Assembly (NCBI GenBank): GCA_048268245.1
Contig: JBLWVX010000025.1
Coordinates: forward strand, 1 to 38,658
Direction: 5' to 3'
DNA length: 38,658 nucleotides
Source: Arcobacteraceae bacterium
GTDB lineage: Bacteria; Campylobacterota; Campylobacteria; Campylobacterales; Arcobacteraceae
The notes beneath the pieces are model-generated. The model was not told the DNA's origin and searched no databases. It was given only the letters and a program-made list of their open reading frames with translations. The position numbers and the translations under genes are program-made. Of this stretch, positions 8,799-34,090 are shown one piece after another; the stretch's first letter is position 1, and each line of letters begins with the position of its first letter.

Positions 8799-9212
8799 CT
8801 ACATTAAATCAAAAGAAACTCTAGTAGAGTTAACTTTTTGATTTGTTTTTTCTTTTTCTAAGTTATCTTGATTTTTAGCTTCTTGTAAAACTGATATAAT
8901 CTCATTTTTAAAAATATCAGCTTCGTAAGCTGCATCTATTACTGCTGTAACTAATGATAATCTTTCATTTGTATCCATAACCATAGACCAACCTTTAGTA
9001 TCATTAACTTGTACAATAGTAGAAGTCACTAGTACCTCTCCTGCATAAAAATCACTATTTGAAATTGGATCCTTTACAGGAACTAGAAGTGTTTGCTCAG
9101 TTGGAGGTGTCAATACTTGTACTTTATTTTTCTCATCAATCTTTTTATATAAATTTTCTAACTTTTCAAATTGCACTAGTTGTGCTAAATTATTAATATC
9201 TTCTCTTTTCAT
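8799..9212 (-). CDS. phnG: PhnG, C-P lyase subunit
   Basis: FYAGEVLVT, AVIDA, C-terminal STRVSF; position in operon. Confidence 0.88.
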   Translation of the reverse strand: MKREDINNLAQLVQFEKLENLYKKIDEKNKVQVLTPPTEQTLLVPVKDPISNSDFYAGEVLVTSTIVQVNDTKGWSMVMDTNERLSLVTAVIDAAYEADIFKNEIISVLQEAKNQDNLEKEKTNQKVNSTRVSFDLM

Positions 9213-9213
9213 T

Positions 9214-10071: not shown

Positions 10072-10086
10072 TTTCTATCCTTATTT

Positions 10087-10109
10087 AAGTAAGCGTAAAA
10101 CGCTTACTT
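10087..10109 (-). terminator. Intergenic stem-loop after phnD (mRNA stabiliser or partial terminator)
   Basis: Perfect 10-bp inverted repeat AAGTAAGCGT-AAA-ACGCTTACTT between phnD and phnE. Confidence 0.6.
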
Positions 10110-10117
10110 TGATTTAA

Positions 10118-10984: not shown

Positions 10985-11014
10985 TTCATTTCCTAATTTT
11001 CTTAATTTTTTACA

Positions 11015-11749: not shown

Positions 11750-11763
11750 TATTAATCTCCTAA

Positions 11764-12486: not shown

Positions 12487-12503
12487 TTTAACTGCCTTTT
12501 AAC

Positions 12504-12597
12504 TTGTCTACACAAGCTTGATGGCGAAAGTATAAAATAGTTAAATTACACAATGATTACAAGTTGTCTATACAAGTTGTTACTCCTGTATAGACAA
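12504..12597. promoter_or_regulatory. Three HutC/PhnF-type operator palindromes
   Basis: TTGTCTACACAA (12504-12515), TTGTCTATACAA (12564-12575) and CTGTATAGACAA (12586-12597), all upstream of phnF. Confidence 0.75.
12529..12562 (-). promoter_or_regulatory. Pho-box-like promoter of the phn operon
   Basis: Minus strand reads TGTAAT-CATTG-TGTAAT (11-bp period), then 10 nt, then TATACT (-10 at 12529-12534). This matches PhoB-type promoter geometry. Confidence 0.7.
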
Positions 12598-12657
12598 GTA
12601 AAAAACTAAATTTGTTAGGAAGTTGTATTTATAGGACTTAGATTAAATAATTACAGT

Positions 12658-13476
12658 TTAATTACAATCTTCTTTTTTAGATAAGGTTTTTAAAAGTTCA
12701 CAAGAAAACCCTGCTTTTTTTCTAGCTTCAAAATTTAAATCCATTTTTCTTTTAGTTGAACCTGGAAAAACTTCTTCAATAATTTCTAGATATGTAGAAT
12801 CATAAGGTAGGTTTTCTAAATCACAGGCATATTTAAACCAAACATCACCCTTTGTTACATGATCAACCTCTTCTTCTAAAATAATATTTAAAGCATCAAG
12901 TATTTTTCTATTAAATGGATCATTATTTGATTTTAATTTTTCCATTATTTTTGGATTTTGGTCTAAACCATTTGCTTCAAGATATCTTGGAACTGCTGCC
13001 ATTCTTCTCAAAAACTCTGGAGTTGCTTCCATTGCTTCAAATAGATTTTTATGTACAGCATGATCACCATACTTGCAACCAATTTCTCCTAATAACTCTT
13101 CCAGCATTATAAAATGTCTGACTTCATCATTTGCAACTTCTAACCAATCTTTGTAGTATTGCAGGGGCAAGTCTTTGTATCTTAAAGCTGCGTCAAGAGC
13201 TAAATCAATTGCACTGTATTCAATATGTAAAATTGTATGAAGAAGATATTGTTTACCTTCTATAGTATTAAAATTTTTTATTTTAGGTAATGATGTTGGC
13301 TTAACAATTTCTAAAAAACTAGAATATGATGGTTCTTTAAGTTTAGGGGGTATATAATCTTTTTCAAAAGTAAAATTATTATTTATAAAGTTTTTATAAA
13401 AAGATTTGAACTTTTCAATCTTATCTTTTGGATTATTTGTTAATAAAACATGTTCTAATGTAGAAAAATAATTCAC
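12658..13476 (-). CDS. Ferritin-like domain protein (DUF455 family)
   Basis: LHTILHIEYSAIDLALD, DEVRHF, LEANGLD, EEVDHV di-iron motifs. Confidence 0.88.
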   Translation of the reverse strand: MNYFSTLEHVLLTNNPKDKIEKFKSFYKNFINNNFTFEKDYIPPKLKEPSYSSFLEIVKPTSLPKIKNFNTIEGKQYLLHTILHIEYSAIDLALDAALRYKDLPLQYYKDWLEVANDEVRHFIMLEELLGEIGCKYGDHAVHKNLFEAMEATPEFLRRMAAVPRYLEANGLDQNPKIMEKLKSNNDPFNRKILDALNIILEEEVDHVTKGDVWFKYACDLENLPYDSTYLEIIEEVFPGSTKRKMDLNFEARKKAGFSCELLKTLSKKEDCN

Positions 13477-13528
13477 GTATAACCTCTTTTATGATATAAT
13501 GATAATATTTTAGCGAAAAGGCTTTAAA

Positions 13529-14131
13529 ATGGATATAAAAGTACAGCCAATGGGCGATTATCAGACTAATTGTTATATTGTAACAATAGAAGATAAAGAT
13601 ATAATTATTGATCCAGGAGTAGATGCTGCAAGATGGATAAAACAAAATGTAACAAATCCTGTTGCAGTATTAAATACCCATGGACATTTTGATCATGTAT
13701 GGTCAAATACAGAAGTTAAAAATGAATACAATGTAAAATTATATACACCAAAAGATGACTGTTTTTTATTAACTACAGATCCTTATGGATTAGGAATGCC
13801 TTCTTCAAAGGCTGATATTGAAGTTGATCCTGACCAAGAATTCGAAATTGCAGGTGTTAAAATTAAATTTCATCATTTCCCCGGTCATACGCCAGGGTGT
13901 TCTGCTATTCAAATAAACGAACATTTATTTACAGGTGATTTTATATTTAAAGGCACAATTGGAAGATTTGATTTTCCTATGTCAAATGCCGCACAAATGA
14001 AACAAAGTATTAATAAAATACTTTCTTGGGAAAATACTAATTTTCATATTTACCCTGGACATGGTGATAAAACTACATTAAAAGCAGAGTTAGATTCCTT
14101 AGCACAATGGGAAAGATATATTATATTATAA
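13529..14131 (+). CDS. MBL-fold metallo-hydrolase (glyoxalase II / YcbL-like)
   Basis: TNCY, IIDPG, THGHFDH, PGHTPG, FTGD, GRFDFP, PGHG. Confidence 0.9.
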   Translation: MDIKVQPMGDYQTNCYIVTIEDKDIIIDPGVDAARWIKQNVTNPVAVLNTHGHFDHVWSNTEVKNEYNVKLYTPKDDCFLLTTDPYGLGMPSSKADIEVDPDQEFEIAGVKIKFHHFPGHTPGCSAIQINEHLFTGDFIFKGTIGRFDFPMSNAAQMKQSINKILSWENTNFHIYPGHGDKTTLKAELDSLAQWERYIIL

Positions 14132-14143
14132 GGGTAAATATAA

Positions 14144-15049
14144 ATGAGTCAAGTTTGTGAGAATATAGTTAAAGAAAATGAAAATTTAAAACTTGTAAGA
14201 ACTTTAGAACAGTTTTATATAGAAGTTTTAGAGTATTTAAAAACAAAATTTAATGTTGATGATATAGAGATTACTTTACTTGACACAAGTGAAGAAGATA
14301 AAGAAGACATTCTTTATAAATCTTCAAGTAAATTAGTAGAATATAAGAATTGTGTATTTGAATTAATTCAAAGTGAATATACAAAAATAAGAGTTATAGT
14401 TTCATCTAATGATGACAAAAATATAAAAGAGAATAGATTTGTAATTAATTTAGCCCTTCAAGCCTTTTCTCAAACACTATATAATAAGCTTTTAAAAGAT
14501 ACACTAAAAGATTTGAGTCTAATTGATGGTTTAACAGGACTTTATAATAGACATTATTTAGAAAATTATGCTGAAAAACTGTTAAGTTTATCAATTAGAG
14601 AAAAAAATACTTTAGGATTTTTAAAGTTTGGTATTGACCAGTTTAAAGCTGTAATTGATGAGTTCGACTACAATATTGGTGATAAAGTACTTATTGCCTT
14701 AGCAGAAGTTTTAAAAGAGACTTTAAGAACATCTGATATTATATTAAGAATTGATTCTGATGAATTTTTGGTAATTCTAATGAATATTCAAGATAATAAA
14801 AATGCTTCAATGATAGCTCAAAAAATCATAGAAGCATTTGCAAAAAAAGAGGTTTTAGTAAATAAGAAAACAAAACAAATACTAAAAAAGACAATTTGTT
14901 GTGGTATTACGATTTTCCCTGATGATGCTTCAACTATGGATGAGATTTTTAGAAAATCAGATATTGCTTTATATGAAGCAAAAAATAAAGGTAGAAGTCA
15001 ATTCTTTATGTATACTGAAGAAGATACCAATACAATTGACTTATTTTAA
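14144..15049 (+). CDS. GGDEF-domain protein with degenerate active site (DSDEF) and intact RxxD I-site
   Basis: DGLTGLYNR, GIDQFKAVID, RTSD-IILRI-DSDEF, DIALYEAKNKGR. Confidence 0.85.
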   Translation: MSQVCENIVKENENLKLVRTLEQFYIEVLEYLKTKFNVDDIEITLLDTSEEDKEDILYKSSSKLVEYKNCVFELIQSEYTKIRVIVSSNDDKNIKENRFVINLALQAFSQTLYNKLLKDTLKDLSLIDGLTGLYNRHYLENYAEKLLSLSIREKNTLGFLKFGIDQFKAVIDEFDYNIGDKVLIALAEVLKETLRTSDIILRIDSDEFLVILMNIQDNKNASMIAQKIIEAFAKKEVLVNKKTKQILKKTICCGITIFPDDASTMDEIFRKSDIALYEAKNKGRSQFFMYTEEDTNTIDLF

Positions 15050-15059
15050 GGTTTAACTT

Positions 15060-16034
15060 ATGAAAGAGAAGATTCTAGAACTAATAAAAGACTCTAAGAC
15101 AAATGAAGAAAGCTACAAATCTTTAGTTAGTATTTATAATCTATATGAACAGCTACAATATTCAACAAATATTGTTCAAATGGCTGAGGACATTTTTGAT
15201 TGGCTAAATAAATTTTTTAGTGTCGATAATTTAACATTTTCTCTAATTGATATAAGCTCAAATTCAAAAGAAGAAATATTTATAAAAGGTAATGAGTTTT
15301 ATTTAGATGATGATAAAGCATACTTTTTTATTATAAATACACATACAAATCTTAATGCGACAGTATCTTTTAGTGCTACATCAAATGTTCACTATCAAGT
15401 ATTACAAGCTAAATATGATATTATTGAAGCTGCATTCTTTCAAATTTCTCCTATTATTCAAAATGGTATTTTAAAGAAAAACTTTATTGAGTCTTCATCT
15501 ATTGACTCAGTAACAAAAGTTTATAATAGAAACTATTTAATAGAAAATTTAAATAAACATTTAACTATTTCAAATAATACTAGAGATGAAATATACTTTT
15601 TAATGGTTGGTGTTGATCATTTTAAAGCTGTAATTGATGAGTTTGATTATGATATTTCAGACCAAGTATTAATTGAACTTGCAAAAATAATTCATACAAA
15701 TATAAATGAATTTGATATGGTTGCAAGACTTAATGCTGATGAGTTTTTAGTAACTATTTTAAGCAATACTACTAAATGGCAAGTAGAAGATTTATCTAGA
15801 AAGATAATTGAGGACTTTGCTAAAGTAGAGATTAAAGTTAATCCAATTACAAAGCAGACTTTGAAGAAAACTATTTGCATTGGACTTGAAACTTTTAAAA
15901 CAGATTCAAGTGAAACAATTACAGATGCTATAAAAAATGCAGATATTGCTTTATATGAAGCAAAAAATAAAGGAAGAAGTCAGTTTTTTGACTATGATGA
16001 ACTTTCAGAAGAAGACACAATAGAACTTTTCTAA
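15060..16034 (+). CDS. GGDEF-domain protein with degenerate active site (NADEF)
   Basis: DSVTKVYNR, GVDHFKAVID, RLNADEF, ADIALYEAKNKGR. Confidence 0.85.
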   Translation: MKEKILELIKDSKTNEESYKSLVSIYNLYEQLQYSTNIVQMAEDIFDWLNKFFSVDNLTFSLIDISSNSKEEIFIKGNEFYLDDDKAYFFIINTHTNLNATVSFSATSNVHYQVLQAKYDIIEAAFFQISPIIQNGILKKNFIESSSIDSVTKVYNRNYLIENLNKHLTISNNTRDEIYFLMVGVDHFKAVIDEFDYDISDQVLIELAKIIHTNINEFDMVARLNADEFLVTILSNTTKWQVEDLSRKIIEDFAKVEIKVNPITKQTLKKTICIGLETFKTDSSETITDAIKNADIALYEAKNKGRSQFFDYDELSEEDTIELF

Positions 16035-22451: not shown

Positions 22452-23945
22452 TTAAATCACAATTTTAAATAATGCCCCAAACTGTTCTTCTTTTTCAAAG
22501 GTAAATTTAATATTTTCAATACTAATTTCCCCTTCCATATGTTTTGTAACAATTTCTCTTGTCATAAAAAGCCCTATTCCTGTACCTTGACTTTGATGTT
22601 TTGTTGTAAAATATGGTTCAAATATCTTTTCTTGAATATCTTCTGGAATACCATTTGCATTATCTAGTATTTCAATTACTGTTTTATCATTTTGTTTATA
22701 TAAAGAGATTTTAATAAGTTTTTTATTTTCAAAACCTTGTTTATTAGATAGTAAAGCATCTTTTGCATTGTTTACTATATTTAATAAAACTTGCATTAAT
22801 TCATTTTTGTAGTTTTCAATATCAATTGTTTCATCTAAATCTCTTATTAAATCTATATCATTACTACTAAAGCTCATTTCAACTAAATCAAGTGTTTTGC
22901 TAATAATAGATGAAACATTAAAAACAATTTTTTGCTTATCTCTTTCAAAGAAGTTTTTAAAATCATCAATTGTGTTAGATAAATAATTTGTTGTATTCAT
23001 TATGTTGTCTAAAGACTCTTTTAGAATATCATCAGATAATGTATCAAACTCTTTTTGAAGTATTATTCCACTTGTACATGTAGATATAATTGATAATGGC
23101 TGTCTCCATTGGTGTGCTATATTTTCAAGCATTTCACCCATTGCTGCCATTTTTGATTGCTGAATTAAAAGTTTTTCTTTTTTGAGATTATCCTCTTCAT
23201 ACTCTTTAAACTTTGTCATGTCATATACATGAACAACAATACTTTCAATGCTATTTTCACTATTATAGTAAGGTTCATAGTATACTTGTAAGTGGTGTGT
23301 TTTTTTATTGATGTTAATTATTGTGTTAAATTCTATTGATTCACCATTTAAAGCTCTATCAAATTTCTCTTTTATTATGTCATTAAAATACTCTTCACCA
23401 AAAATAAATGACATTGATTTACCTATAAACTTCTCTTTTTTTATTCCGAAAACTTTTGAATAATAATCATTTACAGATAAATACTTATAGTCTTGATCTA
23501 CTAAAGCTAAAAAACACGAAGATTTTTCTAGTGCCTTATTATAGTAGTTTATTAAATTCTCTCTTTGTTTTCTTAATCTCAAATCTTTTATCATTAAAAC
23601 TAAATAGTTTTTTTCTTCTAAGTTTATTAGATTAAAAGAGATTTCTATGGGAATCATTTTTTTATTAAAATCTGAGATGAAATATTCAAAATCTTCTACT
23701 TTTTTCTTGTCTAGAAGTTTTTGAATTGTTTCATTTATGAATTCATCAAAAAAGAAATTATTGCTATTTGGATAAACTTGTGAAAAATGCATACCTATTA
23801 CTTTTTCACAAGGTATTTTTAGAAGATTAGATGTTCTTTCATTGGCATCTGTAATATTACCTGTACTAGCATTTATTACAATAATACTTACTTGTAATTT
23901 ATCAAATAACTGCTTGTAAAAAAGAAGATTATCTATATTTGGCAT
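22452..23945 (-). CDS. Cytoplasmic PAS-PAS sensor histidine kinase
   Basis: Two PAS-like regions, H-box IAHQWRQPL, NAKDA, DNANGI, FEPYFTTK, GTGIGL. Confidence 0.92.
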   Translation of the reverse strand: MPNIDNLLFYKQLFDKLQVSIIVINASTGNITDANERTSNLLKIPCEKVIGMHFSQVYPNSNNFFFDEFINETIQKLLDKKKVEDFEYFISDFNKKMIPIEISFNLINLEEKNYLVLMIKDLRLRKQRENLINYYNKALEKSSCFLALVDQDYKYLSVNDYYSKVFGIKKEKFIGKSMSFIFGEEYFNDIIKEKFDRALNGESIEFNTIININKKTHHLQVYYEPYYNSENSIESIVVHVYDMTKFKEYEEDNLKKEKLLIQQSKMAAMGEMLENIAHQWRQPLSIISTCTSGIILQKEFDTLSDDILKESLDNIMNTTNYLSNTIDDFKNFFERDKQKIVFNVSSIISKTLDLVEMSFSSNDIDLIRDLDETIDIENYKNELMQVLLNIVNNAKDALLSNKQGFENKKLIKISLYKQNDKTVIEILDNANGIPEDIQEKIFEPYFTTKHQSQGTGIGLFMTREIVTKHMEGEISIENIKFTFEKEEQFGALFKIVI

Positions 23946-24114
23946 TTAATTCTCCAAAAAACAACATCAAAGTTATTTTAATATTATGATTTATAATATC
24001 GCTTTTAATATAAAGTTTTGATAAATTATTTTATCTTTTTATTTGTTTTAAAAGAATCCATATTATAATAATTCTTTTATGTAATTTGTATTAGTATTAT
24101 ATAAAGGTTTAATC

Positions 24115-25353
24115 ATGTTTAATAAAGAATTTTTAAAAAATTTAACTATATTATATGTTGAAGATGAAGAGATAGCAAGAAAGCAATTAGAAAAAGTATT
24201 AAATAGACTTTTCAAAGAAGTAATAGTTGCAAAAAATGGTTTAGAAGGGTTTGAAAAATATCTAGAAGATAGACTACTTGATAAACCAAAGATTTCTTTG
24301 ATACTAAGTGATATAAATATGCCTCAATTAAATGGTATTGAAATGCTTGAAAAAATCAGAGAAAAAAACGATTCAATTCCTATAATTTTTACAACAGCGA
24401 GGTCTGAAACAGAATATCTTTTAAAAGCAATATCTTTGAATGCTTCTTATTATGCTTTAAAACCTGTAGATATTGAAGATGTGATTGAGAAAATACAAAA
24501 AGTATGTGAAAAAAAATATTTTGAAAAGTTAATACAAGAAAAAAACACTGAATTAAAAGAGTACTTAAAAGTAATTGATAATGTTGCTACTATTTTTAAA
24601 ATGACCTCAAAAGGTGATATAACTTACTCAAATAGACTTTTTAGTAATACCTTAGCATATGAGAAGGAAGAGTTATTACAAAAAAATTTTCACTCACTAA
24701 TTAGTAAGAATATTGATAAAAATATACTAATTGATTTATGGAAAACAGTCAAAACTAATAAAACATGGAAAAAAGATTTAAAGTTTGAAGACAAAGATGG
24801 TGAAGTTTTATATATAAAGTCAACTATATTTAAAACAGCAAATGAAAATGAGGAGTATATCTCTATTGGTTTTATTTCAACAGAAGAAGTAAATCAGAAA
24901 AGAGAGTTTCATAAAAAGCTTATCACAAATATAAAAGAAAAAAATCTTGAAGTTGCTAAATCATCAAATAATCTAAAATCCTATGAAAATAGAATAACTT
25001 ATTTAGAAAATGAACTAAAAGTTAACAAACAAAAATATTTAGATCAAAGAACTCAAATAGAATATTATGAAAATGAAATGTTAGGTTTAGATGAAAAAGT
25101 TATTAAAAATTTAAAAGTTAAAAATAGTGAAATTGAAGAGCTTAAGGCTATTATTTCAAATAAAAAAAAAGAAAGAGAAAAAGGCATAAAAAAATACAAT
25201 GAACTATCAAAAGAGCTTGTAAATGCTAAAGCAGAGATAGAAAAAATGCAAGAGAAGATTGAAATAAAACAAACTAGAATAGATGATCTTCTTAATCTAG
25301 TAGAGGTTAGAGAAGCCCAGTTAAGAAAATACGATGAGAGTTTTGAAAAGTAA
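24115..25353 (+). CDS. Response regulator with PAS-like domain and long C-terminal coiled coil
   Basis: LYVEDE, SDINMPQLNG, TTA and KP receiver motifs; K/E-rich heptad tail. Confidence 0.88.
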   Translation: MFNKEFLKNLTILYVEDEEIARKQLEKVLNRLFKEVIVAKNGLEGFEKYLEDRLLDKPKISLILSDINMPQLNGIEMLEKIREKNDSIPIIFTTARSETEYLLKAISLNASYYALKPVDIEDVIEKIQKVCEKKYFEKLIQEKNTELKEYLKVIDNVATIFKMTSKGDITYSNRLFSNTLAYEKEELLQKNFHSLISKNIDKNILIDLWKTVKTNKTWKKDLKFEDKDGEVLYIKSTIFKTANENEEYISIGFISTEEVNQKREFHKKLITNIKEKNLEVAKSSNNLKSYENRITYLENELKVNKQKYLDQRTQIEYYENEMLGLDEKVIKNLKVKNSEIEELKAIISNKKKEREKGIKKYNELSKELVNAKAEIEKMQEKIEIKQTRIDDLLNLVEVREAQLRKYDESFEK

Positions 25354-25366
25354 GCTTTATGGCTTA

Positions 25367-25393
25367 CTTTTAGGAACTACGATTATGAATTTT
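25367..25393 (+). repeat. Left att core (27-bp direct repeat)
   Basis: CTTTTAGGAACTACGATTATGAATTTT, identical to 32127-32153. Confidence 0.93.
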
Positions 25394-25416
25394 ACTAAAA
25401 TAAATTAAAAAACTAT

Positions 25417-25442
25417 AAAACACCTTGTTTTAAGACTTCTAA
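25417..25442 (+). repeat. Inverted copy of the integrase upstream region
   Basis: AAAACACCTTG-TTTTAAGACTTCTAA versus the reverse complement of 30939-30965, AAAACACCTTGATTTTAATACTTCTAA (1 gap, 1 mismatch). Confidence 0.8.
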
Positions 25443-25480
25443 GTATTAATATTTATATCAGCCTCATAATATATTTTCTT

Positions 25481-25501
25481 TTTTGGAACACTTTTGGAAC
25501 A
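25481..25501 (+). repeat. Putative integrase arm-type sites, left end
   Basis: Tandem TTTTGGAACA-C-TTTTGGAACA (11-bp period); the same 10-mer occurs at 32072-32081. Confidence 0.7.
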
Positions 25502-25577
25502 TCAACTAATATTATTTAATTAAAAACATGATAACATTATTCTTTTATATTAATAAATATTATATATTTGGAGTAAT

Positions 25578-25784
25578 ATGTCAGATAAAGTTAGAGTTTA
25601 TGAAATAGCAGATGAAGTTGGGGCAAGTAGCCAGGATGTAATTTTAAAATCAAGAAATTTAGGATTTGAATTAAAATCTCCTCAATCTGCAGTTTCCTAT
25701 ATTGATGCTGAAAAAATTGCAAACTATATATTAAGCGGTAAAAGCAACTATCCTTCTGGTATGATACAAAAAATGCAGAAATAG
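25578..25784 (+). CDS. Translation initiation factor IF-2 N-terminal-like domain; probable 5' part of a frameshifted fusion with the downstream ATPase-TOPRIM
   Basis: MSDKVRVYEIADEVGASSQDVILKSRNLGFELKSPQSAVS matches the IF2_N pattern of Campylobacterota IF-2 (recalled); GGAG RBS at 25570-25573. Confidence 0.75.
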   Translation: MSDKVRVYEIADEVGASSQDVILKSRNLGFELKSPQSAVSYIDAEKIANYILSGKSNYPSGMIQKMQK

Positions 25785-26125
25785 ATTATGATAGAGCTAC
25801 TAACAATAAATCAATTAAAAAAAACTATATAGTTAGTAAACGAATAAATAGGAAAGGCTCATCTGGACTAAAATTTATAAAAAAGAAAGACTCTAATAGT
25901 TCCATAAAAAAAGAAGAAGAAAATAAAAATAATTCAGAAGATGAATTAATAAACAAAGAAATAGAAAATGATAAAATTAAACTTTTAAAAAAGATAGAAG
26001 AAAAAAAACTTAAAGTATTCAATAATGATAGTAATAAAAAACTAGAAAAAGAGAAAAATAATTTTGATAAAAGAATTGACTTACCACTTAATTCGTATCC
26101 TAAGATAACTATAGAAATTTATAAC

Positions 26126-27613
26126 TTGAAAACAATATCTTACTTAAAGTGGGATTTACAAGAAGAAGCAGGTGTTTATGGAATAATTGGTGAAAATGGT
26201 TCGGGGAAATCATCATTATTAATCAGTATAGCAAAATTAATTGAACCTAACATTTTCCATCATGAATTAACAGGTTCTAAATATTATGAAAACACAAAAA
26301 TTATTTATACAATAAACGATAATATTTTTACATGGATTAAAAATAAAAGCACTAATAACAATTGGAGACAAAGTACAAATGATAAAATAAATATGCCTAA
26401 TAAATTAAAAGGCTTTTTTGAGTCTTCAATTCTTACTGGCACTAGATTTGATAAAATTGACGAGTACATAAAAGATAAACTTGAATATATAATAGAAGAT
26501 AATATAGATGAAGCAAGTGACTTTATAAAAAATTCTATGAACTATATTCTTTTTGGAGATAAAGACTCATTTTATAAGTTTAATAATTTGTATAAAATTA
26601 CTGCCGAGAGAAGAAGAAAAATAAATAATAACCTAATCACAAAAACATATTCTTACTATGCTTTAAATTTAAAAGATGATGAATATATAAAGGAACATTT
26701 GTTTAGTACAGGAGAATATTTTTTACTTAAGTTATTAAAATTTATAGATAATTTTAAAAATAATGGAGGTAGTGTAATTCCTGCTCTTATAATAATAGAT
26801 GAAGTTGAACTTTCTTTACATCCACTAGCACAAACAAGATTAACGAAACTATTAAATGAATATGCAAAAAAATTTAACTTGATAATTTTATTTGCTTCTC
26901 ATTCATTACATATTCTAGAAAATATTCCAGCAAAAAATACTTTTTTTATTCAAAGGAATATCATGAATAAACATTCTATTTCTAACCCTATACATTTAGG
27001 ATATTTAACATCTAAACTTTTTAAACATCAGTTCTATGATAAAGTAATATTAGTTGAGGATGAATTAGCAAAACAATATATAGAACTTACTTTAAATGAT
27101 CTTCCTCATCATAAAAATTTATCAATTGGAGTTATAATTGTTGGAGGTAGTAATCAAGTTGTAAAGACAGCCGTTGAGAATTATCATGAAAAATTCTATG
27201 GCGATGCAGATGTTATGGTCTCATTAGATGAGGATAGAAAAAAAGATGTTTATTCTGAAAAGAGATATATTAAATGGTATCAACATATTCCTGTGAAGAA
27301 TAATATTGAGAACTATGTTTCTAATCTTATAAAGAATGATGATTATAAATTTATCGAATTTATAGAAAGTCTTTTAATTAAAAAGTCTTTTTATGATTTA
27401 AGTATTCAAACAACAAAACAAAAAACAGGATTTACCACGTTAGTAGCAGAGATAGCCAATAATACGCTGGGACGTTTTTATAATCATAAAGACAATGCAA
27501 AAAGTAATGCGCGAAAAAAAATTGTAGAATATGTATATGAAGAATATAAAACTACATCAGAACAAAATGTACTTGTAGAGGAAATACTAAGTTTACTTAA
27601 CTATGATAAATAA
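26126..27613 (+). CDS. OLD-like ABC/AAA_21 ATPase fused to a TOPRIM nuclease domain (frame open from 25742)
   Basis: Walker A GENGSGKS, signature FSTGE, Walker B IIIDEVELSLHP, H-loop ASHS; TOPRIM motifs VILVED, IVGG, LDED. Confidence 0.85.
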   Translation: MKTISYLKWDLQEEAGVYGIIGENGSGKSSLLISIAKLIEPNIFHHELTGSKYYENTKIIYTINDNIFTWIKNKSTNNNWRQSTNDKINMPNKLKGFFESSILTGTRFDKIDEYIKDKLEYIIEDNIDEASDFIKNSMNYILFGDKDSFYKFNNLYKITAERRRKINNNLITKTYSYYALNLKDDEYIKEHLFSTGEYFLLKLLKFIDNFKNNGGSVIPALIIIDEVELSLHPLAQTRLTKLLNEYAKKFNLIILFASHSLHILENIPAKNTFFIQRNIMNKHSISNPIHLGYLTSKLFKHQFYDKVILVEDELAKQYIELTLNDLPHHKNLSIGVIIVGGSNQVVKTAVENYHEKFYGDADVMVSLDEDRKKDVYSEKRYIKWYQHIPVKNNIENYVSNLIKNDDYKFIEFIESLLIKKSFYDLSIQTTKQKTGFTTLVAEIANNTLGRFYNHKDNAKSNARKKIVEYVYEEYKTTSEQNVLVEEILSLLNYDK

Positions 27614-28685
27614 AATAGTAAATAAATATTTTTCATATTTTAATATAATTCAAAATCCTGACCTAAAATATATAAAGAATTATAGATTAAAAAAAGAATA
27701 TATTACAAATACTTTTAATCTATACTTCAAAAATATTACCAATGAACAAATATTTTCACAAGATGAAATAGAGCTATTAAAAGATTGGTTTATAGATGTT
27801 GCAAAAGCTCATAAAGATTTATATCAAGATTTACCATATAACAAAAAACTAAAATCTGAAGCAATTTTATTCAATGGTCAAATAGTTTTAAAAGAATGCT
27901 TTAATCTTTTACATTTAATTTATAGATATCATTACGCTTATAAATTAAGACATGAATATAAGGATGAAATTAAAGATACTTTATTTAAAATAAGTTCAGA
28001 TAAAAGGGCTTTAAAGAATAAATACAATAAGTTTGATAAAATCTCTAAAAATAAAAGATTTAATAGAAGATATAGAGCTAAATTTGTTTTATTAAAAAGA
28101 GTTCTAAACATTTTAATTAAAGATGAATATTCAGAAAGAATAAAACAGTATCTGTTTTTTATATCATTAAACTTTAAAGCTATTAACTGGGATAAGGTAT
28201 TAGATACAGAAGATGAGAAAACCAAAGAAATCTTTTTTGAATCACTAGACTTTTTTATGTATTTTAATCTTTCAGAAACAAAAATTAAAAATTCTCATAT
28301 GATTTTAGTTTATACATTTTTAACTCAAAGGTTACAAATAAATGAACCTGATTCATTGAACCTTACTAATAGACTTTCAAATGATATTTTATATGATATG
28401 GATAGTAGAAGAGACTATTTTAAAAGAGAACTATCAAAAAATATTTATTTGTACAACATATTTCATTATTTACCAATATTTCTACATTATAATGAAAAAG
28501 ACACCCCTCCTTACACAAAAGAAGAAAAAGATAAACTTGCTCATTCTATAAAAAAACAAGCAACAATTGCAGATAAAAAGTTTAAAGATTGTGATTCATC
28601 ACTATTTATTGAAACTATTGAAAACTCCCATATAAATTATATTAGACAAGAACTAATATTTCTTTATGAATCAAAAAACGAATAA
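27603..28685 (+). CDS. Hypothetical protein, 360 aa, basic and probably helical
   Basis: Long ORF overlapping the ATPase-TOPRIM end by 11 bp; no motif recognised. Confidence 0.75.
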   Translation: MINKIVNKYFSYFNIIQNPDLKYIKNYRLKKEYITNTFNLYFKNITNEQIFSQDEIELLKDWFIDVAKAHKDLYQDLPYNKKLKSEAILFNGQIVLKECFNLLHLIYRYHYAYKLRHEYKDEIKDTLFKISSDKRALKNKYNKFDKISKNKRFNRRYRAKFVLLKRVLNILIKDEYSERIKQYLFFISLNFKAINWDKVLDTEDEKTKEIFFESLDFFMYFNLSETKIKNSHMILVYTFLTQRLQINEPDSLNLTNRLSNDILYDMDSRRDYFKRELSKNIYLYNIFHYLPIFLHYNEKDTPPYTKEEKDKLAHSIKKQATIADKKFKDCDSSLFIETIENSHINYIRQELIFLYESKNE

Positions 28686-28808
28686 AATCGACATAAAAAA
28701 ACAAAAAATATTGATTTCCAAACTTTTTCTTTTTTACTAAACTTCCCCTATCGATATCGAAATTAAATCAAAGAGCTCTTTGTAAATAAAAATTACAAAG
28801 GATAAAAA

Positions 28809-29066
28809 ATGTTAAAAATCAATGGAATACTACTTAATATAATCGATAAAAGTAAGTATAAAAATAAAGATGGTTTAGAAATAGATACAAAAGGAAAAGT
28901 TCAAGTTCTAGTGGAAAATAAAAGAGCTAATGGCTCAATTGTAAAAGAACTTCATACTATTTCAATACCTGATGAAAAAATACCTTTATACAAAGATAAA
29001 GTTAATAAAGAAGTTGAAGTACCAGTAGGAATTATTTCAGAAAAATATTCATTCTATGGTGTCTAA
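28809..29066 (+). CDS. Small putative OB-fold single-stranded DNA-binding protein
   Basis: 85 aa, beta-strand-like pattern, AAGGA RBS, directly upstream of the origin hairpins and Rep gene. Function inferred from size and position. Confidence 0.55.
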   Translation: MLKINGILLNIIDKSKYKNKDGLEIDTKGKVQVLVENKRANGSIVKELHTISIPDEKIPLYKDKVNKEVEVPVGIISEKYSFYGV

Positions 29067-29111
29067 GAATAAGAAAAGAACACAGAGAGCCTTCTGTGTT
29101 TTTTCTTATTC
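29067..29111. repeat. Long inverted repeat (19-bp stem, one bulge) between the ssb-like gene and rep
   Basis: GAATAAGAAAAGAACACAGA-GAGCCT-TCTGTGTTTTTTCTTATTC. Confidence 0.8.
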
Positions 29112-29135
29112 GTGACAATAAAATAAATTTATGTT

Positions 29136-29157
29136 CGGGGTTTATAGTAATACCCCG
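29136..29157 (+). other. Candidate double-strand origin / oriT nick-site hairpin
   Basis: CGGGGT-TTATAGTAAT-ACCCCG: GC-rich stem with TAATA at the 3' side of the loop, as in pT181 dso and Tn916/ICEBs1 oriT hairpins; ends 26 bp before the rep start. Confidence 0.6.
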
Positions 29158-29183
29158 TTCTATACGTCATAAAGAGGAAATAA

Positions 29184-30533
29184 ATGAGTAAAGTAAAAAA
29201 GATATTTGGTATTGATTCACTTTATTACTTCTGTGAATCAAATGAAAATTATGATGATTTATATCTTGAAATATTAGACCAAGTAGAAGAAATAAAAGGT
29301 AAGTTTGAAAAAAAAGATGTTGAGTTTGAGAACAATGACATTATTATAAATATAAACGATACACCTCTAAACTTCTTAGGCAAAGCAGAAGGCTTTCATT
29401 GGTTCAAAGATATAAATGAGTTCTTTAAAATAGGTTTTAAAGATAGATATAAAAACAGAGGTTTAAATGATATTAGAGTGCAACTTCAAGGTGTAGGAAT
29501 TTATACAATGGGCATTAAGTCACTAGTTGAGTTTATTAATGTTCATTTATTAAAAGAATATACAACTGGATTCAATCCAATTACAAGAGCAGATTTAAAC
29601 TGTTTTATTCAATATGATTTTAGCTTTGTAACAAAAGAGATGTTTAGTACAAGAAAAAGACAATATTCGACAATTAGTGAAATTGGTAATGCTTCAAAAG
29701 TGCAAACCTTATATGTAGGAAAAGAGCCTTTTAAACTAAGACTATATAACAAAAAAGAAGAATTAAAAAAATCAAAGAAAAAAGATTTAATGTATGAATA
29801 CTTTTTAAATAATGACTTTGATATTGAAGATGAGATTTTTAATGTTGAGTTTGAGTTACATAGAGCGTATTTAAAAACTTTTAATATCTTTACTATTGAA
29901 GATTTATTCTCTAATGCAGTAAATCTATTTAAAACTTCTATGGAAGATATTAGACTAATAGATATTAACTCTTTATCAAATAAAGCAATTGAACATAACA
30001 ACAAACATAGAGCTAATACTTTAGCTATTTGGGAAGAAATAAAAAGTGAATATTACTTAGAAGATTTTTTACAAATACAATTACCACTAAGTAGAGTTAA
30101 AAGAGCTATTTCAATATATGATGATTATAAGTTCAAATTAGAGTATATAGCTTTAATTAGAAAAGCATTTATAAACAATCTAAACATAGATTCCAATTTT
30201 TTAGATGAACTATACAAAGATGCAAAAGAATCATTAAATAAAACTACTACAAATAAAGAGTTAAAGAAAAGATATACAGAGGTAGAGATTATAAATAAAA
30301 ATGGTTCAAAAGAGAATTTAAGATTATTAGAAGATGGAAATTTAATTAAACCTCTAAGAACTGAAACAGTATCTAAATTACAAGATTATGACTTACTTGT
30401 TTACCTTGATAAGACAAGAGAGAAGAAACATCTATCTTCAAGAGATAAGCATATTTACTATGTAGCTTTAAAAGAAGCAACAAAAAGAAATTTAGTATTA
30501 GATATTACACCAAATGAGGCACAAAGTTTTTGA
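29184..30533 (+). CDS. Rep_trans-like rolling-circle replication initiator / MOB_T-type relaxase
   Basis: GIDSLY, ITRADL, TLYVG...LRLYNKKEE (candidate catalytic Tyr), NVEFELHR; GAGG RBS. Confidence 0.8.
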   Translation: MSKVKKIFGIDSLYYFCESNENYDDLYLEILDQVEEIKGKFEKKDVEFENNDIIININDTPLNFLGKAEGFHWFKDINEFFKIGFKDRYKNRGLNDIRVQLQGVGIYTMGIKSLVEFINVHLLKEYTTGFNPITRADLNCFIQYDFSFVTKEMFSTRKRQYSTISEIGNASKVQTLYVGKEPFKLRLYNKKEELKKSKKKDLMYEYFLNNDFDIEDEIFNVEFELHRAYLKTFNIFTIEDLFSNAVNLFKTSMEDIRLIDINSLSNKAIEHNNKHRANTLAIWEEIKSEYYLEDFLQIQLPLSRVKRAISIYDDYKFKLEYIALIRKAFINNLNIDSNFLDELYKDAKESLNKTTTNKELKKRYTEVEIINKNGSKENLRLLEDGNLIKPLRTETVSKLQDYDLLVYLDKTREKKHLSSRDKHIYYVALKEATKRNLVLDITPNEAQSF

Positions 30534-30611
30534 TACTTTTTTAAAAAGTATATACAGCTTTGAGGGATTTACTCCCTCCCTTAAACAGATAATCAAAGGA
30601 GAATTAAAACA

Positions 30612-30917
30612 ATGGATATACCATTTGAGAATTTAGAAAAAATAAATGAAGTATTAGAAAAATTAAATATATTAGAACAAAAGATTAATAGTGAAAAGAG
30701 ATGGTTAAATACAAAAGAAGCATCTTATTATCTTGGATATTCAAAAGAGCATATCCATAAACTAAAAGACAACTATTTGATTGAGGGTAAACACTACTAT
30801 AAAAAAGCTGGTAGAGTTTTATTTGATAAGTTAGAATTAGATAACTGGGTTATGCCTACATTAACAAAAATGAATGCAAAAGAAATAGCTAATAATGTTA
30901 TTAAAGATTTAATATGA
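30612..30917 (+). CDS. Excisionase-like helix-turn-helix protein (HTH_17 type)
   Basis: WLNTKEASYYLGYSKEHIHKL...GRVLFDKLELDNW; immediately upstream of the integrase. Confidence 0.85.
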   Translation: MDIPFENLEKINEVLEKLNILEQKINSEKRWLNTKEASYYLGYSKEHIHKLKDNYLIEGKHYYKKAGRVLFDKLELDNWVMPTLTKMNAKEIANNVIKDLI

Positions 30918-30981
30918 GTTATAGTAAAATTAAGTCGTTTAGAAGTATTAAAATCAAGGTGTTTTTCAAAAGGAGAAACAC

Positions 30982-32055
30982 ATGGTTAAAATGACACAAC
31001 CTAAACTTTACACTAGAGGGAAAAAACTTTGGGTAAGGTTTAGTTTAGATGGTAAAGTGATTAAGAAATCACTAAATATAGAAGATAGTAAAGCTAATAG
31101 AAAATTAGCTGAAACGCAAATAATTCCACAAATGCTTTTAAAGGTACATAGTGGAGAGTTCTTTGAAAACAAAACTGTTCCAACTGTTAAAGAAATGATT
31201 GATATTAGTTTGAAGATGCATTCAAGTAGTAGAAAAGAACAAACACGTATTAATTATGAGTATGTAATTAAATATCATATATTGCCCTATTTTGGAAAGA
31301 AGAAAATAACTTCACTAAAAGCTAGTGAACTTACATTATGGCAAAATGATTTATTAAAAAAGTTTTCTCCTAAATATGTATCTAATATTAGAGTTGTATT
31401 TCATGGCATTTTACAAGATGCCTTTAGAGATGAAATCATTAATAAAAATCCTTTAACTTTAATAAAATCCCCTTCTTCTGAACCCCTACGAAAGGTTAAA
31501 CCTTTTTCAAAAGATGAAATATTTAGTATATTAAATACTTTGCCTTCAAAAGTAAGAGCTTATTTTGCAATAGGTTTTTTTACAGGTATGAGAACTGGAG
31601 AGATTTTAGCCTTAAAATGGGAAAATATTGATTTTGAGAATAAAACAATTTATGTAAGAGCAACTAGAAATCGTGGTAAGGATAGTACTCCTAAAACAAA
31701 ATCTAGTATTAGAGATGTTGATATAATAAATGTTTTATTACCCTATTTAAATAGTCATTTAAAATATAAAACTGATTCAGAATATCTTTTTAATACAAAG
31801 TTTAAAAAGCCATTTCATAGTGCAAATAAACTATCAATTGTTTATTGGAAAAAAGCTTTAAAAGAATTAGGTATCGAATATAGAAATTTGTATCAAATGA
31901 GGCATACTTTTGCTTCATTAATGATTTCTAATGGAGAAGATATTTTATGGGTATCAAATATGCTAGGTCACAAAAATGCAAATATAACTTTATCATTTTA
32001 TGCAAAATACATAAAAAATGATGAAAAGACTAGAGGTAGCTATTTTAATGCATAG
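30982..32055 (+). CDS. int: Tyrosine recombinase / phage-type integrase
   Basis: GMRTGEILAL, PKTKSS, YQMRHTFAS, LGHKNANITLSFYAK catalytic motifs; N-terminal arm-binding-like region; AAGGAG RBS. Confidence 0.95.
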   Translation: MVKMTQPKLYTRGKKLWVRFSLDGKVIKKSLNIEDSKANRKLAETQIIPQMLLKVHSGEFFENKTVPTVKEMIDISLKMHSSSRKEQTRINYEYVIKYHILPYFGKKKITSLKASELTLWQNDLLKKFSPKYVSNIRVVFHGILQDAFRDEIINKNPLTLIKSPSSEPLRKVKPFSKDEIFSILNTLPSKVRAYFAIGFFTGMRTGEILALKWENIDFENKTIYVRATRNRGKDSTPKTKSSIRDVDIINVLLPYLNSHLKYKTDSEYLFNTKFKKPFHSANKLSIVYWKKALKELGIEYRNLYQMRHTFASLMISNGEDILWVSNMLGHKNANITLSFYAKYIKNDEKTRGSYFNA

Positions 32056-32060
32056 AACAA

Positions 32061-32081
32061 CACTGGTACAATTTTGGAACA
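32061..32081 (+). repeat. Putative integrase arm-type sites, right end
   Basis: CACTGGTACA-A-TTTTGGAACA, same 11-bp period and orientation as 25481-25501. Confidence 0.65.
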
Positions 32082-32113
32082 GTAAAAAATAAATACTTTA
32101 AATAGCCCTATTT

Positions 32114-33232
32114 TTAGGCTATTTTGCTTTTAGGAACTACGATTATGAATTTTGCTCCATATTTCCCATTTTGAATTTTTAAATCCCCTCCAAAACTACT
32201 TTTTATAACAAGCTTCACCATATAAAGACCTGTTCCTGTACCATAATCTTTTGTTGTATAGTAAGGGTCAAAAATTTTATCGAGATTGTCTTCTTTTATT
32301 CCACCTGCATTATCTTCAATGATAACTATACTATATTTATCTTTTGTCATAGTAGTTATTGCTATTTGCCTTTTTTGTATTTGTCTTTCTATAAAGGCAT
32401 CTTTAGCATTTGTGATTAAATTTAAAAAAACTTGTTCTAGTTCAGTTTCAACTCCAAAAGCCGTTTCATCTCCAATATGAACTTTTAAATCAATATTATT
32501 AGTTGTCAACTGTTTATCAAGTAGTTTGATAGTTTTTTCCATTGCAGATTTAATTGTAAAAGTTTTCTTGCTTTTGTTAGGGTTAAAGAAGTTTATAAAA
32601 TCATTTATAGTTTCACTCATAAATACAATCTGTTTTTTTGTATTTTTATCAAACTCTTCTATAAAGTTGTCATCAATTTCCCTATGTTTATATGAATCTT
32701 TTACATCAGAACAGTATAAAGACATATTATTTAAAGGTTGTTTTAACTGATGGGCTATAACTCCTATCATTTCACCCATAGTTGCCATTTTTGATTGATG
32801 TATTAATAACTCTTCTTTTTTTGAAAGCTCACTTGTATCTCTTTTTTTATCTTCAAATAAATCAATATAAACTTTTAATTTAGCTATTAATAGATTTTCA
32901 TCAATTGGCTTTGAAATATACTCAACTGCACCTATTTCATAACCTTTCTTTTGATAAGCATCTTTATCATAAATACCTGTAATAAATATAATTGGTATAT
33001 TTTTTGTTGAATCTATTGACTTTAAATACTGTGCGAATTGAAAACCATCAATATCTGGCATTTGGATATCACTTAAAATCAAATCTACTTTTATTTTCAT
33101 AAGTAGTTCCATTGCCTCAGTAGCACTTAATGCACTATATATATCAACATCAAAGTTATCTTTAATTATAAGTTTTAAAGAGTAGATATTATCTTGAACA
33201 TCATCTACTATTAATACTGAAAATTTACTCAT
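32114..33232 (-). CDS. Hybrid response regulator-histidine kinase (integration target)
   Basis: LIVDD, SDIQMPDIDG, KP receiver motifs; IAHQLKQPL, NAKDA, DNAGGI, FDPYYTTK, GTGTGL. Confidence 0.92.
   Translation of the reverse strand: MSKFSVLIVDDVQDNIYSLKLIIKDNFDVDIYSALSATEAMELLMKIKVDLILSDIQMPDIDGFQFAQYLKSIDSTKNIPIIFITGIYDKDAYQKKGYEIGAVEYISKPIDENLLIAKLKVYIDLFEDKKRDTSELSKKEELLIHQSKMATMGEMIGVIAHQLKQPLNNMSLYCSDVKDSYKHREIDDNFIEEFDKNTKKQIVFMSETINDFINFFNPNKSKKTFTIKSAMEKTIKLLDKQLTTNNIDLKVHIGDETAFGVETELEQVFLNLITNAKDAFIERQIQKRQIAITTMTKDKYSIVIIEDNAGGIKEDNLDKIFDPYYTTKDYGTGTGLYMVKLVIKSSFGGDLKIQNGKYGAKFIIVVPKSKIA
32127..32153 (+). repeat. Right att core (27-bp direct repeat) inside the last codons of the hybrid kinase gene
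   Basis: Identical to 25367-25393; encodes KFIIVVPK on the minus strand. Confidence 0.93.
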
Positions 33233-33250
33233 TTCAAACCTTTTTATTAT

Positions 33251-34090
33251 TTATAAACTCAATAAATCTATCTTTATCAAATGGTTTTTAAAATCATGAT
33301 TTTGTTTATCTTGAATCATTGTAAGTTGCTTCATATTGATATACGCTTCATTAATTCTTCTAGACATTTGATTAAATGTTTGAGCTAGTTTATTTAACTC
33401 ATTGTCTTTCTTATCATCAAACTCTATGTTTATTTCATCAAATTCTTGAACATCATAATCATTTGTAGCTTCAATCATTTTATTTAAAGGCTCAGTTAAA
33501 AGTTTATTATCAAAATATACAAATAAAAACCATAATATTAAGACTGAAACAATAACATTTATTAAAATTAAAGAAATAGTCTCTTGTGTTAACTCTGTAA
33601 TTTGATTTTTAGGTACAAGAAGAGTTACTCTTCCAAGAACTTCTTCTACATTATTTTCAAAATTTTTAAGTTCAAAACTATGTGTAATCAGGTCTGTATC
33701 ATAATTAATATTTTCTAATGTAGAGTTTTCAAACACAAATTTATCAATTTTAGAAAACTTTGGTAAAATTTTACCTTTTACTGAAATAAACTCATTAAAA
33801 GGTGTAAGTATAACTATCCCTTTAACGATTTTAGCATCAATAATAGCTTGAACTTGTTCATCAATTTTCTTTTTGTCAAAAACCCAAATAGTTTTGGATA
33901 AAACAGTTTTAAAAGACTGTTCTATATTTATCAAATCTTTTTTTATTAATTTTTTTGCAAAGTTGTACTCAGTATAAATTTGAAAACTTGTAAATAGTAC
34001 AACAAATAATAAATATGCTAAAAATATTTTTTTAAATAGTAAAAAACCTATTGTATTTCTAAAATTCTTAACAATTGTTTGTTTTCCCAT
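33251..34090 (-). CDS. Membrane sensor with HAMP domain and no output domain (possibly a truncated histidine kinase)
   Basis: Two TM helices flanking a periplasmic region, LTEPLNKM...NELNKLAQTFNQM HAMP motif, then a stop about 30 aa later. Confidence 0.75.
   Translation of the reverse strand: MGKQTIVKNFRNTIGFLLFKKIFLAYLLFVVLFTSFQIYTEYNFAKKLIKKDLINIEQSFKTVLSKTIWVFDKKKIDEQVQAIIDAKIVKGIVILTPFNEFISVKGKILPKFSKIDKFVFENSTLENINYDTDLITHSFELKNFENNVEEVLGRVTLLVPKNQITELTQETISLILINVIVSVLILWFLFVYFDNKLLTEPLNKMIEATNDYDVQEFDEINIEFDDKKDNELNKLAQTFNQMSRRINEAYINMKQLTMIQDKQNHDFKNHLIKIDLLSL

Follow-up and report, generated by a model that had tools for sequence, protein, structure and literature searches.

This analysis concerns a small integrated element in a 38,658-nt stretch of DNA from an Arcobacteraceae bacterium (GenBank assembly GCA_048268245.1, contig JBLWVX010000025.1, forward strand), the whole of which is called the window here. 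Between positions 25367 and 32153 the window holds a discrete, site-specific insertion of 6.76 kb with attachment (att) repeats. Exact direct repeats of 27 bp at 25367-25393 (attL core) and 32127-32153 (attR core), both given on the + strand and identical to each other, stand 6760 bp apart from start to start. They lengthen to 33 nt with two mismatches, and the pair is the sole near-exact long repeat among the repeat families listed for positions 24000-33500. All element genes between the cores are co-oriented on the + strand. They comprise a cargo gene, a fast-evolving gene of 360 amino acids (aa), and genes for a small protein resembling single-stranded DNA-binding proteins (SSBs), a Rep_trans-type replication initiator, an Xis-like helix-turn-helix (HTH) protein and a tyrosine integrase, with two hairpins between the SSB-like gene and the initiator gene. 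A first-pass annotation, made from the sequence alone, had already described the repeats with their spacing and the common gene orientation. Its inventory was borne out for the integrase, the Xis-like protein, the Rep_trans protein, the ssb-like gene and the two hairpins, while the boundaries it drew around the cargo did not hold. Its statement that Zot, coat, terminase, capsid and type IV secretion system (T4SS) genes are lacking agrees with our scans of the element proteins against Pfam, PHROGs and NCBIfam, in which no virion, terminase, coat, capsid, Zot, secretin, coupling-protein or T4SS family was found.

The insertion abuts two genes of signal transduction. The 3′ end of a response-regulator/histidine-kinase gene on the minus strand (32114-33232, 372 aa) contains the attR core; the reading frame of this gene stays intact because the element DNA provides its last three codons and stop. 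On the left, a response-regulator/PAS gene (24115-25353) ends before the attL core. No tRNA was found at the insertion site when one was looked for. The site as a whole belongs to a two-component gene cluster (22452-25353 and 32114-34090) that encodes a PAS histidine kinase, a response-regulator–PAS coiled-coil protein and a response-regulator–histidine-kinase hybrid.

Evidence for mobility comes from the comparison of insertion sites. Among 30 related genomes searched, three cases were informative (G000 denotes the host genome of the window, and other G- and L-numbers denote related genomes and loci). In the congener G003 the flanking genes are adjacent: at its locus L015, positions 2-2541 correspond to window 22615-25158 and positions 2746-3928 to window 32120-33302, with a single copy of the core between the flanks, that is, an empty attB. 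The first-pass annotation had allowed that all related strains might carry the region with no empty site, and G003 has one. In the congener G001 the same site is occupied, with core copies 6054 bp apart; the backbone is nearly that of the window (identity of 94% for the SSB-like protein p85, 96.7% for Rep, 98% for Xis and 97.8% for Int), and the cargo differs, consisting of open reading frames (ORFs) of 326, 73 and 320 aa. At locus L001, which abuts another kinase gene, Rep and Xis are 96% and 97% identical to those of the window but the integrase only 66%. The empty site in G003, the other cargo in G001 and the other integrase in L001 together indicate that whole elements move and that cargo and integrase modules are exchanged between them.

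The 449-aa protein encoded at 29184..30533 (+) is, by profile, motifs and predicted fold, a divergent Rep_trans initiator with a catalytic domain of about residues 1-260 and a C-terminal domain. At E ≤ 1e-3 its relatives fall into 316 clusters, of which almost all are unnamed and come from Arcobacter-like sources; an exhaustive search gave 201 representatives with identity down to about 25%. In an alignment of 62 relatives, which was used for all family tests, PF02486 (Rep_trans) was matched by 41 (E ≤ 1; best 3.1e-8), PF05144 (Phage_CRI, the phage G2P/Cri family) by 22 and phrog_453 (“replication initiation protein”) by 19. The NCBIfam MobT model gave no match for the window Rep and a single weak one among the relatives (1/62, E 2.7e-4). 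When the family profile was compared with PDB sequences, it matched RepDE (4cwc, E 1.5e-7) and RepSTK1 (4cij, E 1.7e-3), and the alignment with RepDE spans motifs I-IV, across RIYNK and WRVEIELKR.

Rep_trans proteins share an N-terminal Asp (motif N′), RxD (I), T/SxY/ExG (II), YxKxxE with the catalytic Tyr (III) and W/LxRxE (IV) (PMC5714925). All five motifs have counterparts in the window Rep, namely D11, R135xD137, T175xY177xG179, Y188xK190xxE193 and I218xN220xE222. D11, D137, Y188, K190 and E222 occur in 62 of 62 sequences, E193 in 61 and R135 in 59; the Arg position of motif IV is Asn in 57 and Arg in 4. The AlphaFold model of Rep (predicted local distance difference test score, pLDDT, 90.3) retrieved RepDE (4cwe/4cwc, E from 3.9e-10 on) and RepSTK1 (4cij, E 3.2e-8 to 9.3e-8) as the top six Foldseek matches in the PDB, with template-modelling (TM) scores to the target of 0.56-0.59; the next matches were TATA-binding proteins at E 2.6e-2. 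The Rep_trans assignment thus stands on the agreement of family profile, motifs and fold, and the first-pass annotation, which had proposed it while allowing that no such fold might be found, was right on this point. Residues of about 260-449 form an extra C-terminal region beyond the catalytic domain.

Directly 5′ of rep lies a hairpin, CGGGGT-TTATAGTAAT-ACCCCG (29136..29157, +), which is a single copy in the G000 genome. A GGGGT..TAGTAA..ACCCC hairpin occupies this place in 23 of 23 distinct loci, at Rep identities down to 53%. Positions G7-G9, T15, G17-A20 and A22-C25 (the GGG, GTAA and CCC blocks) are without variation, and the closing pair covaries (A-U in 11, C-G in 5 and G-U in 2 sequences). 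Since a GC-rich hairpin with an invariant loop here adjoins a Rep_trans gene, as in the model of origins for such initiators (PMC5714925), the hairpin is likely the double-strand origin, with a candidate nick site in its loop. The other hairpin, an A-tract/stem/T-tract structure immediately 3′ of p85 (29067..29112, +), is terminator-like: it folds as DNA at −24.5 kcal/mol (z −7.3) and was also called by a terminator scan (29075-29104). By eye and without a count, most relatives have a stem-and-T-tract hairpin of other sequence at the same place. A function of the terminator-like hairpin as single-strand origin or packaging signal would be speculative.

The 85-aa protein p85 (28809..29066, +) is encoded just 5′ of rep in 29 of 31 related loci and belongs to a family of 374 clusters, all unnamed. 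None of ten members tested had a Pfam match at E ≤ 10 (PF00436, PF02303 and PF17426 included), and no PDB sequence was matched. The structural model (pLDDT 81) shows a barrel of five strands and a single short helix. Its top Foldseek rows in the PDB are mostly SSB and PriB proteins (E 6e-3 to 2.5e-2, TM 0.31-0.52), and in BFVD the best match has a TM of 0.72 at E 8.4e-4, with many rows labelled SSB. VIA-align gave Z 8.5 to Rim1 (root-mean-square deviation 2.7, 76 residues aligned) and Z 8.1 to SsbB/ssDNA, and the Atlas feature search offered Putative_G5P (PF17426; score 0.91, rank 27) as a lead. The model therefore supports an oligonucleotide-binding (OB) fold of the SSB/PriB kind, in line with the first-pass reading of an ssb-like gene, and from it we infer that p85 may bind single-stranded DNA.

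The integration module is of the temperate-phage kind. The 357-aa tyrosine integrase (30982..32055, +) matches PF00589 with 81.9 bits against a curated cut-off of 27.1 (E 6.1e-23), which confirms the earlier call, and also PF14659 (SAM-like, E 1.7e-13), the arm-binding domain PF12167 at its N-terminus (E 6.4e-5) and phrog_1 (E 7.3e-67). Upstream of it, the 101-aa Xis/AlpA-like protein (30612..30917, +) matches HTH_17 below the cut-off (18.7 bits, E 2.2e-3) and several PHROG excisionase families weakly (E 1.7e-4 to 6e-2), so that “Xis-like HTH” remains a suitable description; a small ORF lies between rep and int in most related loci.

Candidate arm-type integrase sites were found at both ends by motif scanning, namely two tandem TTTGGAACA motifs at 25482..25501 (+) for the P arm, and TGGTACA/TTTGGAACA motifs at 32062..32081 (+, repeat family D18) for the P′ arm. 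TTTGGAACA has only three matches in the 38.7-kb window (the tandem pair and one at 32073), all inside the element and within about 130 bp of the att cores; the count by itself is compatible with chance, three matches being reached in 9 of 100 shuffles. Relatives with other integrases have end repeats of their own at equivalent places (L001, L007, L002 and L034), and that of L002 and L034 is CACAAAATCGACACA. Because of the placement at the ends, the end repeats of the relatives and the PF12167 domain, the TTTGGAACA motifs may be arm-type sites that position the integrase. L001, too, is inserted at the 3′ end of a histidine-kinase gene. Taken together, the targets of the window element and of L001 suggest that this integrase clade prefers kinase gene ends.

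The 360-aa gene, p360 (27603..28685, +), overlaps the stop of the cargo gene by 11 nt. The first-pass annotation had counted it as cargo, and the comparison of loci assigns it to the backbone instead, since each of the 22 loci that extend far enough 5′ has, in the same orientation, an ORF of 307-407 aa that stops 49-205 bp short of the p85 gene. Seventeen such ORFs, that of the window included, form one BLAST-linked cluster with identities of 11-61%; p360 had no match in Pfam, PHROGs, PADLOC, NCBIfam, PDB sequences or the Atlas. We had considered p360 and the ATPase of the cargo as a two-gene defence system and dropped this idea, as p360-type genes accompany every backbone whatever its cargo. 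Of the 24 loci whose sequence continues for 1 kb or more beyond rep, 22 have an integrase after it. Read across the loci, the predicted backbone is thus a protein of ~350 aa, p85, terminator-like hairpin, origin hairpin, Rep_trans initiator, Xis and tyrosine integrase, in this order, and a variable slot for putative anti-phage genes adjoins attL.

Locus L006, from a Poseidonibacter record, departs from this order. It has no integrase after rep and an MNT/HepT toxin–antitoxin pair there instead; another tyrosine integrase, of the Arm-DNA-bind_3 type, is found at the far left beside its ThsB/TIR-TM cargo (L006 2819-4060, 10140-10803). L006 is a rearranged or composite island.

The cargo of the window (25578..27613, +) is a predicted OLD/PARIS-like defence protein composed of an IF2 N-domain, an ABC-type ATPase and a Toprim domain, and its gene is frame-shifted. 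It was called as two ORFs of 68 aa (25578-25784) and 495 aa (26126-27613). The 495-aa ORF has a full-length PADLOC match to ATPase-Toprim_I-B (E 3.8e-48, residues 4-478) and weaker matches to PtuA, AriA, Old and GajA; the 68-aa ORF matches IF2_N (E 3.4e-10) and is 79% identical to residues 1-56 of the 892-aa InfB of the host (G000 contig C2, about 100297-100464). Among the homologues, 42 of 76 are proteins of 550-736 aa with PF04760, in which the IF2 N-domain is fused through a Lys/Glu-rich linker to the ATPase-Toprim part; some carry the NCBI label “IF-2 N-terminal domain-containing protein”. In the alignments of the full-length relatives P0391 and P0392, window 25578-25748 and window 25781-27610 are read in different frames, which places the frame shift between about 25748 and 25781. 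A stand-alone 68-aa gene was therefore dropped in favour of one interrupted gene. The frame shift could be decay, sequencing error or slippage, and the IF2 domain on a defence ATPase may be a decoy or a sensor. At the DNA level, the element shares with the rest of the G000 genome only the IF2 N-domain copy and integrase genes above low complexity.

Related backbones carry other cargo: an AbiP2 reverse transcriptase in L001 (E 2e-190), PDC-M60A in L003 (E 5e-45), ThsB (Thoeris) and TIR-TM in L006, Mrr-type nuclease domains in L002 and L009, an HNH-HIT protein in L008, and genes without a recognised family in L004, L007 and G001. These annotations support a variable slot enriched in defence genes, as had been proposed from the window alone.

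A survey of Arcobacteraceae, of the kind proposed in the first-pass annotation, took Rep as marker in a sample of 151 genomes. Rep was found in 26 of them, which belong to 12 of the 22 genera sampled; a single genome can carry up to three copies. Multiple diverged copies occur in G001, G003, G150, G156 and G087, for example at 97% and 72% identity in G001, while G156 has three of 67-68%. Different element lineages therefore coexist in one cell. Rep pseudogenes or fragments were seen in G053, G048, G116 and G066. Taken as a whole, we regard it as probable that the window element is one of a family of Arcobacteraceae elements that are small (about 6-11 kb) and integrate site-specifically. In a library of papers searched with one spelling and without subscription journals, Arcobacter and Rep_trans appeared together in none.

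How would such an element work? Int and Xis would recombine the two 27-bp cores and so release a circle. Rep, its metal held by D11, D137 and E222, would then use Tyr188 to nick the GGGGT/ACCCC hairpin in the loop, and nicking would begin rolling-circle synthesis, by which the element probably copies itself; p85 would coat the displaced single strand. With no virion or conjugation genes of its own, the element must rely on a helper or on passive routes for its passage between cells. We read it as most likely an integrative rolling-circle element dependent on a helper, and for the helper a filamentous phage is our first, although tentative, choice: the p85-coated single strand would be packaged by a resident filamentous phage, with the element’s own integrase replacing XerCD. 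A Rep_trans/Cri initiator, a small OB-fold protein and a long hairpin follow the replication-module logic of filamentous phages and RS1. We rank this route first because such a module suits the export of single-stranded DNA (ssDNA) better than headful packaging of double-stranded DNA or conjugation. A tailed-phage helper and the lack of any dedicated route share the next place, each of them unlikely, and conjugative mobilisation comes last as very unlikely.

Potential helpers are at hand. The G000 genome (99.3% complete) contains two filamentous (inovirus) prophages, on contigs C31 (about 2700-12050; L030) and C44 (about 6700-15800; L029 2725-11769). They have a common layout of a large pIII-like ORF, a small ORF, Zot, a secretin, an HUH Rep (Phage_GPA/G2P), a 77-aa ORF, a ParB-like protein and a tyrosine integrase; C44 has an HTH_17 protein, and C31 an unmatched 108-aa ORF in that position. 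Their integrases are 33-37% identical to that of the element. Inoviruses with a secretin and a ParB-like protein of their own are noteworthy in themselves.

Across the 151 genomes, strong Zot matches (E ≤ 1e-7 in ORFs of 330-410 aa; rows at E about 1e-4 in ORFs of ~800 aa were dropped as probable false matches) occur in 23, comprising 9 of the 26 Rep carriers and 14 of the 125 others (odds ratio 4.2, Fisher p 0.0055, with kinship ignored). VirB4, searched with PF03135 as the only marker, occurs in six, namely 1 of 26 Rep carriers and 5 of 125 others (p 1.0). A further hint comes from the IMG/VR contig L026 (2001-4614, 8001-8597), on which a C-terminal Rep remnant (residues 253-446, 78% identity) lies 3.4 kb 3′ of an inovirus Zot and of an HUH Rep with 60% identity to its C44 counterpart. 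This remnant is without the N-terminal half, the origin hairpin and int, and the gap holds a Thg1-like ORF and two ORFs without a match. Between the two possibilities of the first-pass annotation, a satellite of a filamentous phage or a mobilisable element, the distributions of Zot and VirB4, together with the gene content, lean towards a phage helper and away from conjugation. Unlike RS1 and TLC, the element has its own integrase and does not use XerCD/dif.

Several observations weigh against the account given so far. With regard to its parts, the 449-aa Rep itself has no match in Pfam (E ≤ 0.1), NCBIfam, PHROGs or PADLOC; p85 has middling scores in the fold comparisons (Z about 8; Foldseek E of about 1e-2 to 1e-3), and DNA binding does not follow from an OB fold as such. 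The stem of the origin hairpin hardly varies, so that a single pair provides the covariation, and the loop could be the −10 box of the rep promoter; a sigma-70 promoter scan did no better than shuffles (40 found, 50.8 expected). As to mobility, the contigs of four metagenome runs, which contained at most 35% of the region’s words each, showed no excision or empty-site joint (the joints listed had short sides and were disregarded), and terminal overlaps indicative of circularity were present in 0 of 20 metagenome loci. Since its cargo gene is frame-shifted, the window copy may be decaying. No relative of Rep was found by tblastn in 50,697 phage records or 72,556 plasmid (PLSDB) records. Concerning the helper, the Rep of the resident inoviruses, an HUH protein, is unrelated to that of the element, and at the DNA level phages and element have nothing in common beyond weak similarity inside the integrase genes; 17 of the 26 Rep carriers have no strong Zot, the complete genome G001 has two Rep copies and no Zot candidate at all, and Rep and Zot are far apart or on different contigs in all nine genomes with both.

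In the same metagenome contigs, the left host flank ends exactly at 25393 in three of the four runs and the right host flank begins exactly at 32127 in two, with no bridging contig among those listed. Such ends are expected if the assembly graph branches at the att core; they are compatible with mixed site occupancy and are not evidence for it.

The carriers without an inovirus are among the reasons to consider a tailed-phage satellite, which we judge unlikely. On this account, infection would induce the Xis/AlpA-like regulator, the element would excise and form rolling-circle concatemers for headful packaging, and the cargo would block competitors. The size of 6-7 kb and the gene set (int, HTH_17, one initiator, a few unknowns and defence) parallel PICMI, the search model for which accepts PF12728 (HTH_17) as AlpA (PMC10803314), and phages can transduce islands of integrase and defence genes without transfer genes (PMC12595487). 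Nevertheless, scans of the element gave no primase, small terminase, pac/cos-like or capsid-redirecting gene. Rep_trans initiators normally give single-stranded circles, and a small SSB suits ssDNA packaging better. Phage records hold no relative; in IMG/VR, the distant Rep relatives P0187 and P0202 found none and Rep itself one remnant locus only.

It is rather unlikely that the element is an integrating rolling-circle plasmid or a decaying remnant without a dedicated route, inherited vertically with occasional transformation or generalised transduction, in which replication after excision would only prevent loss or raise the dosage of the defence gene. The frame-shifted cargo, the Rep pseudogenes and fragments in four genomes, and the lack of circular contigs (20 metagenome loci) and of excision joints (contigs of four runs) are what one would expect of it. 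The backbone, however, is intact and highly conserved in 12 of 22 genera at up to three copies per genome, and PLSDB has no free-plasmid relative. Moreover, backbones that are 96-98% identical yet carry different cargo and integrases across species need frequent horizontal movement.

Least probable, and very unlikely in our view, is an integrative mobilisable element (IME) in which Rep would act as a MOB_T-type relaxase at the hairpin (as oriT) and borrow a co-resident mating pore: the relaxases of ICEBs1 and Tn916 do belong to Rep_trans (PMC5714925) and streptococcal IMEs with a Rep_trans relaxase and an integrase are known (PMC7563843, PMC5357655), but VirB4 is lacking in the host (by PF03135, other VirB4/TraC families being outside the search) and rare among carriers and the sampled genomes, G2P/Cri matches outnumber the weak MobT match by 22 to 1 among the 62 relatives, and the backbone has no coupling-protein-like P-loop gene.

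The chief interest of the element is in how small defence islands travel. Such islands, with an integrase and defence genes but no genes for transfer, are common, and how they spread is for the most part unknown; a family whose conserved backbone of six parts is compact and includes a candidate origin offers a tractable system. With it one can ask in what way a Rep_trans replicon and site-specific integration are coupled in hosts other than Firmicutes and Vibrio, whether satellites with an integrase exist among those of filamentous phages, and by what means defence genes are shuffled. A bolder and, as we see it, doubtful proposal is that these elements are the first family of integrase-bearing filamentous-phage satellites, which would be excised by Int and Xis and extruded as SSB-coated ssDNA circles in the coats of resident Arcobacteraceae inoviruses. 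They would thereby ferry interchangeable anti-phage systems across species, one of which, the hitherto unstudied IF2_N-ATPase-Toprim fusion, may watch for phage attack on translation initiation.

Comparison with known systems shows partial likeness to several of them. To the initiators of pT181, pC221 and pSTK1 (RepC, RepD and RepSTK1; PF02486), the window Rep is akin in fold (Foldseek E 4e-10 to 9e-8), in the five motifs with the Tyr of YxKxxE, and in the D-D-E triad, and a hairpin origin, here a candidate one, likewise lies beside rep. It differs in its low identity (about 15%), in the Asn for Arg of motif IV (57/62), in the extra C-terminal region of about 190 aa, and in belonging to a chromosomally integrated element of Campylobacterota, not Firmicutes.

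RS1 and TLC, satellites of CTXphi in Vibrio cholerae, are also small and integrated, without virion genes and with a Rep_trans/Cri-type initiator. In RS1 a small ssDNA-binding protein is found beside the initiator (RstA/RstB). RS1 and TLC ride in filamentous particles; for the window element, filamentous prophages are resident in G000, and packaging by them would be an analogy. RS1 and TLC integrate through the host XerCD at dif and without an integrase (PMC6744903), whereas the window element has its own tyrosine integrase, Xis, putative arm sites, an attB at a gene 3′ end and a defence slot. As it does not use XerCD/dif, we do not place it in the RS1/TLC group.

PICMI of Vibrionaceae resemble the element in their size of about 6 kb, integrase, AlpA/HTH_17 regulator, single initiator and lack of packaging genes; according to the same source they amplify in a rolling-circle-type manner and protect against other phages, encode a primase (DUF3987/DUF5906) and integrate next to fis (PMC10803314). 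The window element instead pairs Rep_trans with an SSB-like protein and has its attB at a kinase gene end: no DUF3987/DUF5906 domain was found in any element protein, and the flanks are two-component genes, not fis. Without this primase and away from fis, it is not a PICMI.

With streptococcal MOB_T IMEs, ICEBs1 (NicK) and Tn916 (Orf20) the element shares the combination of Rep_trans and a site-specific recombinase in a small integrated element. It is set apart by a MobT match in 1 of 62 relatives, VirB4 (by PF03135) in 1 of 26 carriers and another host phylum, and is not assigned to the MOB_T IMEs because it has neither the MobT signature nor a T4SS context. A further parallel is pSAM2, an integrative element of actinomycetes with the gene order repSA-xis-int, in which RepSA is not a Rep_trans protein and an FtsK-like Tra serves transfer. 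As in pSAM2, a rolling-circle rep stands beside xis and int in one integrated element that would replicate after excision; unlike pSAM2, the window element has no gene for an FtsK-like Tra by Pfam scan. By analogy, the element is perhaps best described as a hybrid, in which replication of the RS1/CTXphi or pT181 type and integration of the temperate-phage type would be joined to the minimalist, defence-bearing lifestyle of PICMI and other “hitcher” islands (PMC10803314, PMC11389934, PMC12595487).

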